Shown: in pieces, positions 20,804 to 28,240 of the stretch | Layout of the letters: each line of letters begins with the position of its first letter | Numbering within the stretch: position 1 is the first letter of the stretch | NCBI GenBank assembly: GCA_937996795.1 | Contig: CALKUH010000038.1 | Span: 92,226-124,225 of the forward strand | DNA length: 32,000 nt | Origin: an uncultured Verrucomicrobiota bacterium | GTDB taxonomy: Bacteria > Verrucomicrobiota > Kiritimatiellia > CAIVKH01 | Direction of reading: 5' to 3' | The notes under the pieces: generated by a model | Told to the model about the DNA's origin: nothing | The model's input: only the letters and a program-made list of their open reading frames with translations | Database searches by the model: none | Made by a program: the position numbers and the translations under genes

Positions 20804-20866
20804 TAACCACGAAACACACGTAACACACGAAAGTCGGTTTCGTGTTTTTCGCGAATTTCGTGGTTA
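20804..20866. repeat. Head-to-head pair of the 29-nt TAACCACGAAA...CACACGAAA unit (cargo-less copy)
   Basis: The left arm 20804-20832 and the reverse complement of 20838-20866 match at 24/29 positions, with a 5-nt spacer. They match the arms at 25134-25162 and 25550-25578 at 25-27/29. The last 3 nt form the alaS stop codon. Confidence 0.8.
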
Positions 20867-23821
20867 TCCCGCCAATAGTTTCACCGCCGCGGCGAGGGCT
20901 TCGTCCACCTTCGACGCATCCTTGCCGCCGCCGCGGGCGAACTCGGGTTTGCCGCCGCCTTTGCCGCCGACGATCGGCGCGATGGCCTGGATGATCTTGC
21001 CCGCCTGCACCTGCTTGGTGAACTCGGGCGCGACCGAGGCGAGGAGCGTCACGCTGCCGCCCGACGCGCCGCCGAGCACGATCACACCGCTGAACCGCGC
21101 CTTCAGATGCTCGGCCACCGCGGCCACCGTGTCGCCGTCCGCATCGCCAAGATTGGCCACGATCGTTTGCCGTCCGCCGCGCGCCTGCGCCTGCGACACG
21201 AGCGCCGCCGCGCGTTCACCGGCCTGCTTCAATTGCACGGCCTTGAGCTGCTTCTCCAACTCTTTCTGGTGTGCGAGCAACGATTCGATGCGCTTGTCCA
21301 GTTCCGTCGGCGCGCAGTTCAGCGTCGCCGCCACGTGCTTCAGGCGCTGGATATCCTCCACCACCGTCTGCCAGCCCGCGAGCCCGGCCACCGCCTCGAT
21401 GCGGCGGATGCCCGCCGCGATCGCGCCCTCGCCCGTAATGCGGAACAGGCCGATCTCGCCCGTCGCGCGGGTGTGCGTGCCGCCGCACAATTCCATCGAG
21501 TACCCATCCAACGCGCCCGACGCGCCGCCGATCTGCACGACGCGCACAGTCTCGCCGTACTTGTCGCCGAAGAACTGCATCACATCCTTGCGCGACTTCA
21601 CGTCAGCGTACGGCACTTCGCGCCAGCTCACGCCGGCGTTCTCTACAATGCGCTCGTTGACGAGGCGCTCGATGTCCGCGACTTGCGCCGGCGTCAGCGC
21701 GGCGCTGTTGAAGTCGAAGGTCAGTTTGTCCGGGCCGACCGACGACCCCTTCTGGCTCGCCTCGCGGTTCACCACCTCGTGCAGCGCCCAGTGCAGCAAA
21801 TGCGTAACCGTGTGGTGCCGCTGGATCGCCGCCCGCCGCGCGGCATCCACCGCCAGCACAACTTCCGCCCCCTTCTCCGGCGCGTCCGCGCCATCGACGA
21901 AATGCAGCCACGCCGCGCCCGCCTTCTGCGTGTCCACCACGCGCCACAACTGGCCGCCGAGGCGAATCTGCCCCGTGTCGCCGACCTGGCCGCCCATCTC
22001 CGCATAACAGGACGAGCGATCCAACACGACCGCAGTGCGCCCCTTCACGTCGAGCACTTCCGCCACCTTCGCCGTCGTCTCCAGTTGATCGAACCCGACG
22101 AACGCCGTCGCGACATCGCTCGCAAGCTGCGACACCTCGATCACCGTCTTCTTCTGCGCCGCCCGCGCCCGCGCGCGCTGCTTCTCCATCTCGTTTTCAA
22201 ATTCACTTTCGAAGGCAGCTATATCAACCGTGAAACCACGTTCTCTCGCCATCAGCTGTGTCAGATCAAGGGGGAAGCCATACGTATCAGAGAGGACAAA
22301 CGCGAATCGACCAGGAAACGACAGGAGCTTTCGCTTTAGCGCGCCGATAGCAGACATTTCACCACTCAAGCAAATCGCGAGAAACCGCTCGGCCAGATTG
22401 TCTGCGTTATCATTTAGTTGCTCAATTTCCAGCGCAGTGCATCCGACCGCATATGCACTTGCAAGGCGCTTCATGGGATTCGCACGAAAGTCACCTGAGA
22501 GGCGCGTAATTTCATCAAGCATAACAGGAATCCTGCGATTCGGGTTCGCGAGTATATTTATCAGATGCAGTGCATCTTTACTCCCTTGTGTGTATTCATC
22601 GACAAGGATTAAGCCTCGGCCCAGTGTTCGATTAAATGTTTCTTCTTCTCCTCTGGTTGACTCTTCGATTCGCTTCTGTTTTTCCCCAATTTCAGGAAAT
22701 ACATTACTCATCGTCTCGGCCAAAACGCCGACAAGACGATAAAGAAATGGCTCACGGAAGCCGAGCACATGGCCATAGCGAGCAGCTCGCCGCAAGACGC
22801 GGCGAATCACCATATTTCTTTCTTTATTGCCAGGCTCGATTCCGTCTGCGATAGCAAACCCTATAGTGCGGATGTGGTCGGCGATGACGCGGAACGCGAC
22901 GTCGATCTTCTCCTGCTCGTTCGCGCCGGTCGTGCCCGCCGCGGGCAGCGTGGATGCGTAGCGTTTCCCGCTCAGCCGCTCCAGCGCGTCGAAGATCGGG
23001 CGGAACACGTCGGTCTCGTAGTTCGACACCGCGCGGCTGAAATCCGTGAAGCCCTTGGTGCACTGCATGATGCCGGTGACGCGCTCAAAGCCCATGCCGG
23101 TGTCGACGTGCTGCGCGGGCAGCGGGACAAACGAGCCATCCGCGTTCGCGTTGAACTGGATGAAGACGAGGTTCCAGATTTCGATGCACTCGGCGGACCC
23201 CTTGTTGACGAGCGACCCGCGCGTATCGCCGCCGGGCGTGAGGTCCACGTGGATCTCCGAGCACGGCCCGCACGGCCCCGTCTCGCCCATCATCCAGAAG
23301 TTGTCCTTCTTGTTGCCGTTGACGATGTGGACCTTCGGGTCGAGCCCCGCCGCGGTGAAGATGCGCGCCCAGTGGTCGTACGCCTCCTGGTCGAACTCCG
23401 CCGGGTCGCCCTTCGCCTTGTCCGGGCTGTAGACCGTCGCGAACAGCCGCGCGGGCGGGAATTTCCACACCTTCGTCAGCAGCTCCCACGCCCACTCGAT
23501 CGCATCCTTCTTGAAGTAGTCGCCGAACGACCAGTTGCCGAGCATCTCAAAGAACGTGTGGTGATAGGTGTCGAGCCCGACGTCCTCGAGGTCGTTGTGC
23601 TTGCCGCCCGCGCGGATGCACTTCTGCGTGTCCGCCGCGCGCCCCGGCTGGTACGGGCACGGCTGCTGCCCCAAGAAAATCGGCACGAACTGGTTCATGC
23701 CCGCGTTGGTGAACAGCAGGTTCGGCGAATCAGGCATCAGGCTCGACGACGGCACGATGGTGTGCTGCTTCGAGCGGAAAAAATCGAGGTACGACTGGCG
23801 AATCTGCGCGGAGGTCATCAT
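20864..23821 (-). CDS. alaS: Alanine--tRNA ligase, with an in-frame ~85-aa insertion and a low-GC internal patch
   Basis: MMTSAQIRQSYLDFF N-terminus (ATG at 23821; the ORF track starts at an upstream TTG at 23860). HHTFFEMLGNWSFGDYFK, DTYGFPLDL, editing-domain HTVTHLLH, and a C-Ala domain. 985 aa from the ATG at 23821, longer than I would expect for this family. Confidence 0.93.
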   Translation of the reverse strand: MMTSAQIRQSYLDFFRSKQHTIVPSSSLMPDSPNLLFTNAGMNQFVPIFLGQQPCPYQPGRAADTQKCIRAGGKHNDLEDVGLDTYHHTFFEMLGNWSFGDYFKKDAIEWAWELLTKVWKFPPARLFATVYSPDKAKGDPAEFDQEAYDHWARIFTAAGLDPKVHIVNGNKKDNFWMMGETGPCGPCSEIHVDLTPGGDTRGSLVNKGSAECIEIWNLVFIQFNANADGSFVPLPAQHVDTGMGFERVTGIMQCTKGFTDFSRAVSNYETDVFRPIFDALERLSGKRYASTLPAAGTTGANEQEKIDVAFRVIADHIRTIGFAIADGIEPGNKERNMVIRRVLRRAARYGHVLGFREPFLYRLVGVLAETMSNVFPEIGEKQKRIEESTRGEEETFNRTLGRGLILVDEYTQGSKDALHLINILANPNRRIPVMLDEITRLSGDFRANPMKRLASAYAVGCTALEIEQLNDNADNLAERFLAICLSGEMSAIGALKRKLLSFPGRFAFVLSDTYGFPLDLTQLMARERGFTVDIAAFESEFENEMEKQRARARAAQKKTVIEVSQLASDVATAFVGFDQLETTAKVAEVLDVKGRTAVVLDRSSCYAEMGGQVGDTGQIRLGGQLWRVVDTQKAGAAWLHFVDGADAPEKGAEVVLAVDAARRAAIQRHHTVTHLLHWALHEVVNREASQKGSSVGPDKLTFDFNSAALTPAQVADIERLVNERIVENAGVSWREVPYADVKSRKDVMQFFGDKYGETVRVVQIGGASGALDGYSMELCGGTHTRATGEIGLFRITGEGAIAAGIRRIEAVAGLAGWQTVVEDIQRLKHVAATLNCAPTELDKRIESLLAHQKELEKQLKAVQLKQAGERAAALVSQAQARGGRQTIVANLGDADGDTVAAVAEHLKARFSGVIVLGGASGGSVTLLASVAPEFTKQVQAGKIIQAIAPIVGGKGGGKPEFARGGGKDASKVDEALAAAVKLLAG

Positions 23822-23900
23822 GGGCGTTTCCTTGGAAAAACAGCCCGAAACCATAGGCAAAGCCCCCGCGCAACGCCAGCCCGGACTTTGCCCCGGTGGA

Positions 23901-23989: not shown

Positions 23990-25132
23990 ATGAATGAGGC
24001 ACTTTCCATTCGCGCGGGGCTGGCGAAGGCGCGCCGGATCGTCGTCAAGATCGGCAGCCGCGTGCTGGTGCAGAAAACGGGGCGGCCGGACCGGCGGCGC
24101 ATGCGCGAGCTGGTGCGCCAGGTCGCGGCGCTGCACGAGGCGGGCCGCGAGGTCATCGTCGTTTCGTCGGGCGCGATCGGAAGCGGCATCGAGGCGATGG
24201 GCTGGCGCAAGCGGCCCACGACGCTGAAGCTGCTGCAGATGGCGGCGGCGGTCGGGCAGTCGCGCCTGATGGCGGCGTACGACGAGTTGTTCGGCGCGCA
24301 CGGCATCCGCATCGGCCAGATCCTGCTCACGCATGAGGACCTGCGGCACCGCACGCGCCACCTGAACGCGCAGGAGACGATGGCGACGCTGCTCGCGCAC
24401 CGCGTGGTGCCGATCGTGAACGAGAACGACGTGGTCGCGATTGATGAAATTAAGTTCGGCGACAACGACCTGCTCGCGGCGCTGACGGCGCTGCTGGTGC
24501 AGGCGGACGCGCTGGTGCTGCTGACGACGGTGGACGGCTTCCGCGCGCCTGCCGGCGCCGGGCGTACGCGCCGCGTGCCCGCGCTCGCGGGGGTCAGCGA
24601 GAAGGAGCTGTCGATGGCGCTCGGCAAGGGCAGCGAGCTGAGCACCGGCGGCATGGCGAGCAAGCTGCAATCGGCGGGCATGGTCGCCGAGAACGGCATT
24701 CCCGTCGTCATCGCGAACGGGCGCAAGGACGGCATCCTCGACGAGGCGCTCGCGGGCGCGGATGTCGGGACGCTGATCCAGCCCGCGTCGGGGGCGGATG
24801 CGCTGTCGCGGCGCGAGCGGTGGATTACGATTTTTCATCGCGCCGAGGGTGCGCTGGTCATTGACGACGGCGCGCGCGCGGCGCTGGTGGACAAGGGCCG
24901 CAGCCTGCTGCCCGTCGGCATCCGCTCGGTCGAGGGCGACTTCGACGCCGGCGCCGTGGTCAGCATCAAGGCGCTCGACGGCACCCTGCTCGGCCGCGGG
25001 TTGAGCGACCACTCCAGCACCGAAATCAACCTCATGAAAGGAAAACACTCCACCGAACTCGAATCGCTCCTCGGGACGTCCGACTCACCCGTCGTGGTGC
25101 ATCGGGATAATTTGGTGTTTCGGAAGAGGTGA
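23990..25132 (+). CDS. proB: Glutamate 5-kinase (with C-terminal PUA domain)
   Basis: Start at the ATG at 23990 (MNEALSIRAGLAKARRIVVKIGSRVL). SSGAIGSG and NENDVV motifs. The 407 codons upstream in the same ORF are antisense to alaS and are not part of the gene. Confidence 0.93.
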   Translation: MNEALSIRAGLAKARRIVVKIGSRVLVQKTGRPDRRRMRELVRQVAALHEAGREVIVVSSGAIGSGIEAMGWRKRPTTLKLLQMAAAVGQSRLMAAYDELFGAHGIRIGQILLTHEDLRHRTRHLNAQETMATLLAHRVVPIVNENDVVAIDEIKFGDNDLLAALTALLVQADALVLLTTVDGFRAPAGAGRTRRVPALAGVSEKELSMALGKGSELSTGGMASKLQSAGMVAENGIPVVIANGRKDGILDEALAGADVGTLIQPASGADALSRRERWITIFHRAEGALVIDDGARAALVDKGRSLLPVGIRSVEGDFDAGAVVSIKALDGTLLGRGLSDHSSTEINLMKGKHSTELESLLGTSDSPVVVHRDNLVFRKR

Positions 25133-25133
25133 G

Positions 25134-25578
25134 TAACCACGAAATACACGAATCACACGAAAGGGGGGCTTGTGGCGGAAATCGTTTATCCGGAGGAGAG
25201 CTATCGGATTCAGGGAGCTTGCTTTGAAGTCTACAAGGAAAAGGGGTGCGGCTTTCTTGAGCCGGTTTACCAGGAATGTCTGGAAATCGAACTCGAACTG
25301 CGGGGCATAGCGTTTCGAAGCCAGCCTGAGTTGTCGATCAGCTACAAAGGTCGCCTGCTAAAACAAACCTATCGGCCGGATATTGTGTGCGAAGGAAAAA
25401 TCATTATCGAACTCAAGGCGGTCTCCAAACTGCTGGATGAGCATCGCGCTCAGGTTCACAACTACCTCCGCGCAACCGGCCTTCGCTTGGGCATTCTGGC
25501 TAACTTCGCCCACTTTCCCAAGCTCGAGTACGAGCGAATCGTAATCTAATTTCGTGTGTTTCGCGTATTTCGTGGTTA
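25134..25578 (+). mobile_element. Putative IR-bounded cassette: 29-nt terminal inverted repeats enclosing a single GxxExxY gene
   Basis: Left arm 25134-25162 and the reverse complement of the right arm 25550-25578 are 27/29 identical. The interior is about 43-53% GC on sampled lines, versus ~67% in the flanks. It sits exactly between the proB stop and the proA start. Confidence 0.45.
25172..25549 (+). CDS. GxxExxY-family protein (PD-(D/E)XK nuclease superfamily)
   Basis: 125 aa, GTG start. GFLEPVY matches G-x-x-E-x-x-Y. RPDIVCEGKIIIELKA matches the D...E-x-K nuclease core. Confidence 0.85.
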   Translation: MAEIVYPEESYRIQGACFEVYKEKGCGFLEPVYQECLEIELELRGIAFRSQPELSISYKGRLLKQTYRPDIVCEGKIIIELKAVSKLLDEHRAQVHNYLRATGLRLGILANFAHFPKLEYERIVI

Positions 25579-25590
25579 AATGAAAAAGCT

Positions 25591-26844
25591 ATGAACCTTC
25601 ATGAAGAGATGATTGCGATGGGGGATCGGGCGGTGGGGGCGGCGCGCAAGCTGGCGCAGCTTTCGGCCCGGCGCAAGAACAGCATCCTCGAAGCCATGGC
25701 GGCGGAGCTGGATGCCCGGCGTGCGGAGCTCAAGGAAGCCAATGCGCGGGACATGGAAGCCGCGAAGGCGGCGGGCATTTCCGGCGCGATGCTGGATCGC
25801 CTGCTGCTGACCGACAGCCGCATTGACGGCATGATCAAAGGCATCCGTGATGTCGTCGGCCTGAAGGACCCCGTCGGCCAGAAGATCAGCAAATGGCTGC
25901 GTCCCAACGGGCTCGAAATCGTAAAGGTCCGCGTGCCCATCGGCGTCATCGCGATCATCTACGAATCGCGCCCCAACGTGACGGCGGATTCGTCGATCCT
26001 CTGCATCAAAACCGGCAACGCGGTCATCCTGCGCGGCGGCAAGGAAGCGCTGCACTCGAACCAGGCGATTGCCGAGGCGCTGCAGGCGGGCGGAAAGAAG
26101 AAGGGCCTGCCCGACCACGCGCTGCAGGTCATCGGCACGACGGATCGCGAGGCGATTCGCGAACTCGTGCAGCTCGAAGGCCGCGTCGATCTCGCCATCC
26201 CCCGCGGCGGCGAGGGGCTGATCCGCGCGGTCACCGAGCAAGCGCGCGTGCCGGTCATCAAACACTACAAGGGCATCTGCTACATCTACGTGCACGAGAC
26301 GGCGGACACGGCGATGGCGTTGCGGATCATCGAGAATGCGAAGTGCCAGCGGCCCGGCGTCTGCAATGCGGCGGAGCATGTGCTGGTGGACCAGTCCATC
26401 GCGGCGGCGTTCCTGCCCGAACTGGCGAAGACGCTGCGCGCGCGCAACGTCGAACTGCGCGGCGACGAGGCGGCGCGCGCGATTGTCACCGACATGAAGG
26501 CCGCGACCGACGCGGATTGGGACACCGAATACCTCGACCTCATCCTGGGCGTTAAAGTGGTGCCCGGCGTGCAGGCGGCGATCGATTTCATCAACCGCCA
26601 CGGCTCGCACCACTCCGACGCCATCGTCTCCGCGGATCCCGTCGCCCAGCGCGAGTTCACCGAGCAGGTGGACTCCGCGACGGTGTACGTGAACGCGTCG
26701 ACGCGGTTCACCGACGGCGCGGAATTCGGGCTCGGCGCGGAAATCGGCATCAGCACCGACAAGCTGCACGCCCGCGGCCCGATGGGGTTGGAGGAATTGA
26801 CGACGTACAAGTACGTCATCCAGGGGACGGGGCAGATTCGGTGA
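25591..26844 (+). CDS. proA: Gamma-glutamyl phosphate reductase
   Basis: 417 aa. Catalytic Cys context PGVCNAAEHVLV, and a typical ProA C-terminus ...LTTYKYVIQGTGQIR. Confidence 0.95.
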   Translation: MNLHEEMIAMGDRAVGAARKLAQLSARRKNSILEAMAAELDARRAELKEANARDMEAAKAAGISGAMLDRLLLTDSRIDGMIKGIRDVVGLKDPVGQKISKWLRPNGLEIVKVRVPIGVIAIIYESRPNVTADSSILCIKTGNAVILRGGKEALHSNQAIAEALQAGGKKKGLPDHALQVIGTTDREAIRELVQLEGRVDLAIPRGGEGLIRAVTEQARVPVIKHYKGICYIYVHETADTAMALRIIENAKCQRPGVCNAAEHVLVDQSIAAAFLPELAKTLRARNVELRGDEAARAIVTDMKAATDADWDTEYLDLILGVKVVPGVQAAIDFINRHGSHHSDAIVSADPVAQREFTEQVDSATVYVNASTRFTDGAEFGLGAEIGISTDKLHARGPMGLEELTTYKYVIQGTGQIR

Positions 26845-26861: not shown

Positions 26862-26924
26862 CTGTAGCCGCGACCGCTGGTCGCGGCCTGCAAACCGCCC
26901 CGCGGTCAACGACCGCGGCTACAG
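26862..26924. repeat. Structured ~60-nt element: CTGTAG...CTACAG closing stem around two GC hairpins (copy 1)
   Basis: Outer stem 26862-26867 with 26919-26924. Hairpin 1 is GCCGCGACC/GGTCGCGGC (26867-26875 with 26879-26887). Hairpin 2 is CCGCGGTC/GACCGCGG (26900-26907 with 26911-26918). It fills the convergent proA/thioesterase gap. Confidence 0.7.
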
Positions 26925-27935: not shown

Positions 27936-27971
27936 GTCCCCCTACTCGTTGCCGTCCGCGGATGCGGGCGG

Positions 27972-28080
27972 CACATCGAGAGTGGCGCGAGGGACCTGGC
28001 CCGATGACCGCCCAGCAACCTGTCCCGCAACTCGCGGGATAAGGTGCCAACGCCAGCCCCGGTTTCGGGGGAACGATGGG
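27972..28080 (+). promoter_or_regulatory. SAM-I (S-box) riboswitch aptamer
   Basis: ATCGAGAGTGGCGCGAGGGACCTGGCCCGATGACCGCCCAGCAACC...GGTGCCAACGCCAGC...GAACGATG matches the S-box core nearly position for position. P1 is CATCG/CGATG. P3 is TCCCGC/GCGGGA. P4 is CCCCG/CGGGG. It lies upstream of metY-metX. Confidence 0.85.
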
Positions 28081-28240
28081 CCTCGATAGTTGAGGAATGC
28101 GGACCTGTCTTCCCCTCCCTCCGCGGCGGCCGCTGGGCTCCCATCGTACTCGTCCTTCGTCGTCGTCCCCGTCCTCGAACCGATTCGAGGACGAGGAGGA
28201 GAACGCGGACGAGAACGACGTAGAAAAGGAGAAGCGCAGC

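Follow-up and report, generated by a model that had tools for sequence, protein, structure and literature searches.

GxxExxY nuclease-fold genes in hairpin cassettes bounded by tandem 9-nt repeats: a Verrucomicrobial proB-proA insertion and its apparent relatives across phyla

This study concerns a small gene cassette in a 32,000-nt stretch of DNA from an uncultured Verrucomicrobiota bacterium (lineage Kiritimatiellia; GenBank assembly GCA_937996795.1, contig CALKUH010000038.1, positions 92,226 to 124,225), which we refer to throughout as the window. Positions 25134-25578 of the window are an inserted, inverted-repeat-bounded, single-gene cassette lying between proB and proA, and its gene encodes a protein of the GxxExxY family. 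The same hairpin-cassette architecture is common to most of the GxxExxY genes that we sampled. The repeat arms, for their part, are a sequence-conserved element that recurs across phyla and exists mostly without the gene. The protein family itself is known; its organization into inverted-repeat-bounded hairpin cassettes is apparently undescribed. An earlier note on this DNA, made from the sequence alone, was aware of no such description, and none was found in the literature that we searched, whose coverage is incomplete.

The insert measures 445 bp and is framed by two 29-nt arms, 387 nt apart, that are complementary at 27 of 29 positions. The left arm (25134-25162, + strand; TAACCACGAAATACACGAATCACACGAAA) is composed of TAA, a single C and three 9-nt units, the cores of which read CACGAAA (25138-25144), CACGAAT (25147-25153) and CACGAAA (25156-25162). 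Its inverted copy, the right arm (25550-25578, + strand; reverse complement TAACCACGAAATACGCGAAACACACGAAA), reads TTTCGTG (25550-25556), TTTCGCG (25559-25565) and TTTCGTG (25568-25574), followed by GTTA. Each arm is a tandem array of three units of the consensus n-A-CACGAAA with CC at the outer end; in the left arm this CC end points outward and the AAA end toward the loop. A 9-nt spacer (25163-25171, + strand; GGGGGGCTT), which holds the sole Shine-Dalgarno-like run, leads from the left arm to the GTG start of the GxxExxY gene (25172-25549, + strand), a 125-aa open reading frame (ORF) whose TAA stop abuts the right arm. No other cargo is enclosed. On the upstream side the stop codon of proB (glutamate 5-kinase, TIGR01027; 23990-25132, + strand) lies 1 nt from the left arm, and on the downstream side the ATG of proA (glutamate-5-semialdehyde dehydrogenase, NF001221; 25591-26844, + strand) follows 12 nt past the right arm. 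The GC content is 0.49-0.54 over 25000-25700, compared with 0.65-0.74 in proB and proA. The earlier note had reported the 29-nt arm pair, the one bracketed ORF, both spacings and the low GC content, and had regarded the nuclease ORF as the only cargo; our recount agrees on all of these points for the window cassette. Its description of the arms stands as far as the 29-nt pair is concerned, but the tandem three-by-9-nt build of each arm had been overlooked.

Comparison of the proB-proA junction among relatives, the wider of which were reached through ProA homologues, establishes that the segment was inserted. The same cassette is present at the junction in L123 and L124 (99% amino acid identity) and in the sister species represented by L121 and L122 (92%). 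In four relatives, L309, L225, L311 and L226 (ProA identities of 89%, 85%, 84% and 81%, respectively), the junction is empty and arms are absent, the proB-proA spacers spanning 25-59 nt. This is the empty-site comparison that the earlier note had proposed, and it upholds the reading of an insertion over that of an ancestral gene. Two further relatives are occupied by something else: L224 (ProA 89%) carries a different cassette, with CACGGAA/CGCGGAA units and a protein just 59% identical, and L310 (ProA 88%) retains a 3' remnant, detected by tblastn (E 1e-10), of another, third GxxExxY gene together with a CGCGAAT-type right arm just upstream of proA. Between the right arm and the proA ATG, L121, L224 and L310 share an identical flank, A(A/C)TTTAG, and three distinct arm-plus-ORF units occupy one exact nucleotide boundary. 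Such a common boundary, combined with differing arms and ORFs, is more readily explained by exchange through a palindrome already in place than by three separate transposition events.

The arrangement is not peculiar to this junction. A metagenome scan with a 47-sequence alignment provided 80 loci, including 72 GxxExxY genes with complete flanks. When a flanking inverted repeat was counted at a score of at least 13 (shuffled controls reach 8-14), approximately 58 of the 72 genes possessed one; most sampled paralogues, which the earlier note had suggested examining, are bracketed by similar arms. Throughout this set the arms nearly always consist of two or three 9-nt units of the CACGAAA, CGCGAAA, CACGGAA, CACGGAT or CGCGAAT type, ending 2-16 nt upstream of the start codon and beginning again 0-20 nt downstream of the stop. 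A Verrucomicrobial cassette with CACGGAA arms lies between an ABC ATPase gene and its permease gene, and another, with CACGAAA arms, between brxC and pglX of a BREX operon. Distant, plasmid-borne members in Bacteroides finegoldii (between radA and a FAD protein gene; CACAGAGGA) and Bernardetia (CACAGAGA) also have arms of three 9-nt units, with CACAGAG units replacing the CACGAAA type. Other distant plasmid GxxExxY genes have direct repeats or an adjoining hairpin in place of bracketing arms, and many homologues are located on very short contigs. The orientation of the gene relative to the arms was discarded as evidence, given that any enclosed gene has a CACGAAA arm upstream; an inverted repeat is identical on both strands, which leaves its polarity, with CC outside and AAA at the loop, as the only informative feature.

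The junction between the ABC ATPase gene and an FtsX-type permease gene is occupied in six loci (L125, L145, L151, L157, L169 and L193). Cassette identity across these loci (62-93%) roughly parallels ATPase identity (70-98%), suggesting an old insertion maintained by vertical descent, and the arms at this site are still recognisable after deep divergence. Five of the six units in L125 are CACGGAA and the sixth is CACAGAA, while its nearest relative, L145 (81% amino acid identity), has CACGAAA, most units having changed in concert. Elsewhere, two different GxxExxY cassettes flank nuoK in the nuo operon of L186 (700-1960), at junctions that appear to be nuoJ-nuoK and nuoK-nuoL, and L219 (700-2020) has a tandemly duplicated cassette with arrays of extra right arms. 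Among the plasmids, a 27-nt direct repeat lies on either side of the GxxExxY gene in L317 (Fusobacteria), direct repeats of 9-nt units (ACAAATCGn) precede two consecutive genes in L315 (Prevotella) and a solo CGCGGAT hairpin is found directly 3' of the gene in L314 (Gemmatirosa).

Far more often, the arms occur on their own. The arm pattern CCACGAAANNCNCGNANNNCACGAAA was found in at least 120 stretches of one-genome-per-species contigs, where about 4 would be expected by chance (2 x 596 Gb / 4^19), and arms were found in at least eight phyla. Among the matches listed, the hosts belong to the Verrucomicrobiota, Kiritimatiellia, Lentisphaerae, Planctomycetota, Acidobacteriota, Gemmatimonadota, Spirochaetia and others, and also to the Methylococcales, Gallionellaceae and other Betaproteobacteria; a GxxExxY protein is encoded at 5 of these 120 arm loci, and in all five the gene adjoins the arms. 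Three arm copies with no more than three mismatches occur in the window itself, compared with 0.00 expected from 100 shuffles. The third of them is the left arm of a gene-less palindrome, a solo hairpin of the same element at 20804-20866 (arms 20804-20832 and 20838-20866, 83% complementary, with the 5-nt loop GTCGG). It is flanked by the terminator of an hsp20-like gene on one side and the stop codon of alaS (- strand) on the other, its hairpin fold has a z of -3.95 and it is missing from the syntenic spacer of the relative L225. The search for arms elsewhere, another check put forward in the earlier note, thus reveals a repeat that is very widespread beyond the window copies at 25134-25578 and 20804-20866. 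The notion of an arm-bounded unit survives with respect to the bracketing but not with respect to the arms as the cassette's own private ends, gene-less copies being far commoner.

Loop lengths are continuous from 5 to about 140 nt, and a second group of about 366-387 nt includes the gene-bearing loops. A tblastn search detected no ORF remnants in the solo loops, which rules out the interpretation of solo hairpins as decayed cassettes. Unrelated nested palindromes are frequent in the loops and another small ORF is occasional; the nested foreign palindromes imply that loops are insertion-prone, and hairpin loops look like general insertion hot spots. In L033 (5061-5470) a CACGAAA hairpin is nested within an outer CACGAAG hairpin, and a 79-aa ORF weakly matching DUF4926 lies in the loop of the inner hairpin; unrelated nested palindromic repeats are present in the loops of L082, L107, L114 and L283/L291. 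The arms on one viral contig (L250, 4108-4335) enclose a 51-aa ORF of unknown family that starts directly after the left arm, and hence GxxExxY genes are not the only cargo of the arms. Another viral contig (L252, 760-1300) has a pseudogenised cassette with perfect arms, the one such case in the CACGAAA-arm set, with a fragment of another GxxExxY 5' end immediately outside the left arm.

Viral sequences from IMG/VR contain 82 stretches matching the CACGAAA pattern and at least 120 matching the CACAGAG pattern. Nine strict arm matches fall on a single contig of 40.9 kb (IMGVR_UViG_3300047586_000299); the 32-kb window has two elements. A partner arm is absent within 450 nt for 76 of 157 arms in genomes and for 86 of 111 in viral contigs, and the single phage arms occupy short spacers that separate genes of like orientation. 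Of 73 phage CACGAAA arms, 39 have an ORF start within 45 nt downstream on their own strand, compared with 21 on the opposite strand; the corresponding counts for CACAGAG arms are 18 of 42 and 5 of 42, from which 58 arms inside long open frames were excluded, as this pattern also matches coding tandem repeats (L319, L321). Perfect but partnerless triple-9-mer arms, mostly on the sense strand in tiny spacers immediately ahead of a ribosome-binding site and ATG, are numerous in L301, L305, L228 and L294 (CACGAAA type) and in L342 (six copies), L359 and L320 (CACAGAG type), contigs in which no GxxExxY gene was found.

The ends and the internal variation of the arms are informative as to what maintains them. 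Arms end in (A/G)(A/T/C)CCAC, and the inverted repeat extends 1-3 nt past the CC, with an outer dinucleotide that varies by lineage yet stays complementary: AA in bacteria of the Planctomycetes-Verrucomicrobia-Chlamydiae (PVC) group and Planctomycetota, GT in Beta- and Gammaproteobacteria and GC in part of the Acidobacteriota. These lineage-specific dinucleotides are common to solo hairpins and cassettes. Direct repeats of 2-6 nt around the 141 arm pairs examined are as frequent as permutation predicts, and no target-site duplication is apparent. Unit cores are near-invariant, while at the variable n positions the two arms of an element agree in only 41-62% of cases, compared with 25% between elements, and the arm changes that separate the window from L121 are not compensatory. 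Conservation at the level of sequence, together with weak arm-arm matching, points to recognition by a protein, beyond mere pairing; a purely structural RNA or DNA stem was considered and is insufficient to account for these data.

The assignment of the 125-aa product to the GxxExxY family, made in the earlier note from short motifs, is borne out by full-length matches to PF13366 (PDDEXK_3; 143.6 bits against a cutoff of 22, E 4.5e-42, profile positions 2-117 of 117) and TIGR04256 (GxxExxY; 142.6 bits against a cutoff of 35, positions 2-116 of 116). The catalytic-type motifs that it had named, GFLEPVY, PD and ELK, are all present (G27-F-L-E30-P-V-Y33, P69-D70 and E80-L-K82), and residues E30, D70, E80, K82, Q94 and Y98 are invariant in the alignment of 47 homologues. 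This set of E, D, ExK and QxxxY is what we take to be the catalytic motifs of the RecB/Cas4/lambda-exonuclease clade. An AlphaFold2 model (pLDDT 95.1, pTM 0.86) finds its best Foldseek matches in the PDB among Cas4 SSO0001 (4ic1, E 7e-5), lambda exonuclease, LHK-Exo and RecE; as modelled, the protein is a minimal Cas4/RecB-like PD-(D/E)XK nuclease fold with a complete catalytic motif set, about half the size of these enzymes. The resemblance to Cas4 is structural only: TIGR04256 was the sole match among the NCBIfam models, which include Cas4, a search of the PDB by sequence gave no match, profile searches with PADLOC and PHROGs returned nothing significant and no cas genes are present among the gene calls around the window-type, L121-type and L224 cassettes. 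The family comprises 14,550 clusters at 50% identity (E <= 1e-3), and its function is given as "Unknown" in a survey covering GxxExxY/PF13366 (PMC3424549). Some members of approximately 265 aa (P0251, P0284, P0287-P0289 and others) contain two tandem GxxExxY domains.

Between the window and L121, the ORF has a synonymous divergence (dS) of 0.65 and a nonsynonymous divergence (dN) of 0.039, for a dN/dS of 0.06; the corresponding ratio for proB is 0.10. In the arms, 5 of 58 nt have changed, a smaller fraction than the difference of 0.43 at synonymous sites. The low ratio of the ORF and the slow change of the arms indicate that both have been constrained since the insertion, and these rates place the GxxExxY ORF under strong purifying selection. 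The label "selfish", which the earlier note had attached to the cassette, is unproven in view of this ratio at such a dS and of the apparent long retention at the ABC ATPase-permease site.

With regard to expression, neither a sigma-70-like promoter nor an intrinsic terminator was found in 24800-25800. All six independent cassettes with gene calls or readable flanks lie inside co-directional operons, and a longest-ORF heuristic finds 55 of 65 downstream neighbours and 48 of 64 upstream neighbours to be co-directional with the cassette. In the predicted mRNA the arms pair in both the minimum free energy and the centroid structures, and the stem that they form carries the ribosome-binding site and the start codon at its top. 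No Rfam family reaches its gathering score at the hairpin, and searching with E up to 10 yields chance-level matches only.

The explanation that we favour, tentatively and with a confidence that falls slightly short of even, is that GxxExxY genes are promoterless homing-type nuclease cassettes that live in, and move between, triple-9-mer palindromes. The nuclease gene fills the loop of a long imperfect palindrome, and palindromes of this type would be both the substrate and the habitat of the nuclease. A cassette would have entered the short proB-proA spacer in an ancestor of the window species and its sister species, and would be transcribed together with proBA. Its protein would bind the repeated 9-nt units, possibly as an oligomer, and would cut the hairpin or cruciform once this is extruded, most likely within the single-stranded loop or close to it, an activity that would fit the modelled Cas4-like fold. 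Recombinational repair would then copy from another palindrome with the arms serving as homology, such that the content between the arms is copied or exchanged and the spread is homing-like rather than cut-and-paste transposition. Arm pairing in the mRNA may bury the ribosome-binding site and start codon, keeping nuclease expression low. We lean toward the homing-type explanation because three different cassettes share an identical boundary at proB-proA, target duplications are missing, the solo loops are clean and loops in general are insertion-prone.

Several observations weigh against it. Binding or cutting of the arms by the nuclease is a step that we infer. In arm-rich phage contigs no intact GxxExxY gene was found: queries with window-type and Bacteroides-type proteins found no intact close gene in IMG/VR, and there is none in 1.0 Mb of CACAGAG-arm contigs. 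The arms on phage contigs are, moreover, mostly single and sense-strand-biased just upstream of gene starts, suggesting a role in expression that does not involve the nuclease. A fixed, purely selfish homing gene should decay, whereas the orthologous pair of the window and L121 shows a dN/dS of 0.06, and the ABC ATPase-permease site, to judge from the sequences, seems to have retained an intact cassette through deep divergence. Finally, the type of arm unit is not significantly associated with protein identity (the observed value was reached in 360 of 2000 and in 513 of 2000 permutations), protein length being the sole trait that tracks CAC-type versus CGC-type arms.

Some of these points would be accommodated if the arms were signals acting on expression or at the RNA level and not mobility ends, an alternative that we consider rather unlikely. 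The 5' arm would be an A/C-rich, sense, "start-associated" leader, and the 3' arm would create a long stem that occludes the start or an RNase III-type site, as in rRNA intervening sequences; the GxxExxY protein would be a host-useful or addictive small nuclease, acting for example in repair, defence or RNA processing, whose gene moves only through ordinary recombination and horizontal transfer. The strand bias of single phage arms in short co-directional spacers agrees with such a role, as do the other small ORFs bracketed by arms (the 79-aa ORF of L033, with its weak DUF4926 match, and the 51-aa ORF of L250), the purifying selection on the ORF, the few arm changes relative to synonymous sites, the predicted pairing of the arms in the mRNA and a cassette that has no promoter or terminator of its own. 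It is harder to reconcile with solo hairpins that also lie between convergent genes, where a leader would make no sense, with arm changes between the window and L121 that do not compensate one another or with the missing Rfam match, and we know of no machinery common to PVC bacteria, Acidobacteriota, Proteobacteria, Spirochaetia and phages that reads (nA-CACGAAA)x3. That roughly 80% of one small gene family is bracketed, and that three different cassettes have occupied one junction, are both hard to explain without a link between nuclease and arms.

A further alternative, which we judge unlikely, is modelled on transposons or on the REP-associated tyrosine transposases (RAYTs) and the hairpin-forming doublets (REPINs) of repetitive extragenic palindromic (REP) sequences: the GxxExxY nuclease would excise or copy any arm-bounded DNA, with gene-bearing units as the autonomous elements and solo hairpins as non-autonomous passengers mobilised in trans. 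The analogy originates in RAYT genes flanked by REPs (PMC3337134). It extends to a small nuclease-type gene between inverted copies of a repeat that is also dispersed intergenically as hairpin-forming, gene-less doublets, to the absence of target-site duplication, as in IS200/IS605 and REPINs, and to three units per end that resemble multiple transposase-binding sites. The signs of long vertical persistence under purifying selection likewise have a counterpart described for RAYTs (bioRxiv 10.1101/2021.07.10.451892). However, three cassettes at an identical proB-proA boundary would demand extreme target specificity, no target motif is evidently common to the other insertion sites, the solo loops vary in length (5-140 nt) and in sequence and lack ORF remnants, and single arms on phage contigs have no partner. 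The enzymes differ as well, the cassette encoding a Cas4/RecB-like PD-(D/E)XK protein where a RAYT is an HUH Y1 (IS200-like) transposase. The cassette arms are three tandem 9-nt units that are not themselves palindromes, and their consensus is common across phyla, whereas REPs are lineage-specific. GxxExxY genes are a multi-copy, widely dispersed family, probably with many paralogues per genome, in contrast to RAYTs, which are single-copy genes accompanied by tens to hundreds of repeat copies in a genome. The arms also lack the GTAG or CGTC tag, the tetranucleotide conserved at REP ends (PMC3733652). A classical terminal-inverted-repeat transposon or miniature inverted-repeat transposable element that duplicates a TA target is highly improbable. 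The 29-nt arms matching at 27 of 29 positions are reminiscent of terminal inverted repeats, and the ends can be written TA|ACCACG...CGTGGT|TA, as the earlier note did in raising a TA duplication; but the TA belongs to the inverted repeat itself (TAACC...GGTTA), as the variable outer dinucleotide AA, GT or GC beyond the CC shows, direct repeats around arm pairs are at chance level and there is no DDE transposase, the only ORF being a 125-aa PD-(D/E)XK domain. These data contradict the proposal. Least probable of all, to the point of being negligible, is an ancestral small proB-proA gene surrounded by a chance inverted repeat. A gene that holds one position in two or more species-level lineages, under purifying selection, would suit such a history, but the proposal is refuted by the four empty junctions and by homologues in unrelated contexts bracketed by the same arms, and it is further at odds with a GC content 15-20 points under that of the flanking genes and with a chance expectation of 0.00 arm matches in the window.

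Among known systems, the nearest concepts are REPIN-RAYT and free-standing homing endonuclease genes, yet defining features of both are missing here. Free-standing homing endonuclease genes of the PD-(D/E)XK type (the I-Ssp6803I class; intronless homing in phages) resemble the cassettes in having a nuclease ORF as sole cargo, in insertion between conserved genes with presence/absence polymorphism and differing alleles at one exact site, in the lack of target duplication and in the existence of decayed copies (L252, L310). Polymorphism of this kind is seen at proB-proA, which is filled in the window, L121, L123, L224 and L310 (as a remnant) and empty in L309, L225, L311 and L226. The known examples are not, however, bracketed by long inverted repeats of tandem units; they target a unique host sequence where the target here would be a dispersed palindrome, and they usually decay after fixation, whereas the GxxExxY ORF is strongly conserved. 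The intervening sequences of 23S rRNA (Leptospira and Coxiella type) are comparable in that an ORF of about 120 aa within terminal inverted repeats, which form a long transcript stem, is inserted in an essential transcription unit. The cassette differs from them in its location in the spacer of an mRNA operon and not in an rRNA helix, in its PF13366 rather than PF05635 ORF and in arms whose sequence is conserved across phyla. Integron cassettes share a promoterless single ORF, oriented with the host transcription unit, that is associated with an imperfect palindromic site and interchangeable at one location. In the GxxExxY cassettes, by contrast, the palindrome is split around the ORF instead of lying downstream, there is no attC core GTTRRRY, the cassettes are scattered in housekeeping operons instead of arrayed at attI and no integrase is found in the gene calls around five independent cassettes. 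Cas4, lambda exonuclease and RecE share the fold of the model and the motif set of the protein; the smaller size of the latter and the lack of a visible CRISPR context set it apart. The single phage arms, in turn, recall the start-associated sequences (SAS) and extended SAS (ESAS) of mycobacteriophages, short conserved motifs that recur many times within one phage genome, lie in the sense orientation immediately ahead of gene starts and in some copies have inverted-repeat partners. The triple-9-mer arms differ from these in sequence and architecture, span phyla and bacterial chromosomes and are associated with a nuclease family.

Other features of the window lie outside the cassette. In the product of alaS (20864-23860, - strand), approximately 95 aa are inserted in frame where the catalytic/tRNA-binding part gives way to the editing domain; the insertion is absent from the 900-aa AlaS of L225 (1917-4619). 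At the same position in L121 (alaS at 1-2714), an in-frame insertion of approximately 215 aa contains an IS200/RAYT-like Y1 transposase domain with a weak PF01797 match and a visible HVHLL motif, apparently a case of an essential tRNA synthetase with a transposase domain lodged inside it. Just past the proA stop is a 25-nt inverted repeat (26862-26886 / 26900-26924) starting CTGTAGCCGCGACC, 80% complementary with a 13-nt loop; it is a GTAG-tagged, REP-like doublet (26862-26924) of a family distinct from the triple-9-mer arms, and its further copies in the window are only weak. An S-adenosylmethionine (SAM; S-box) riboswitch occupies 27970-28082 (+ strand), with 65.1 bits against a gathering score of 44.4.

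Taken more broadly, triple-9-mer palindromes and the GxxExxY mini-nuclease may together constitute an unrecognised, cross-phylum class of mobile or semi-domesticated element, a proposition that we regard as quite possible although clearly below an even chance. Accordingly framed, a Cas4-like nuclease of about 125 aa, from a family of at least 14,550 clusters at 50% identity, would recognise tandem 9-nt units in hairpin arms and propagate or exchange the content of hairpin loops without target duplication. The arms would give rise to intergenic hairpins by the thousand in PVC bacteria, Planctomycetota, Acidobacteriota, Proteobacteria, Spirochaetia and Bacteroidota, and phages would have taken up the arms as start-associated intergenic elements.

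The association of most sampled GxxExxY members with a defined DNA architecture provides the family with its first concrete, testable substrate, namely arm oligonucleotides. The cassettes are located within housekeeping and defence operons, including proBA, nuo, an ABC transporter and BREX. The single arms that precede phage genes suggest a further function of the motif in gene expression. Should the arms prove to be acted on by the nuclease, the system would represent a RAYT-independent way of making and maintaining dispersed bacterial palindromes, and the protein a minimal nuclease guided by sequence or structure, whose recognition units of 9 nt are conserved.

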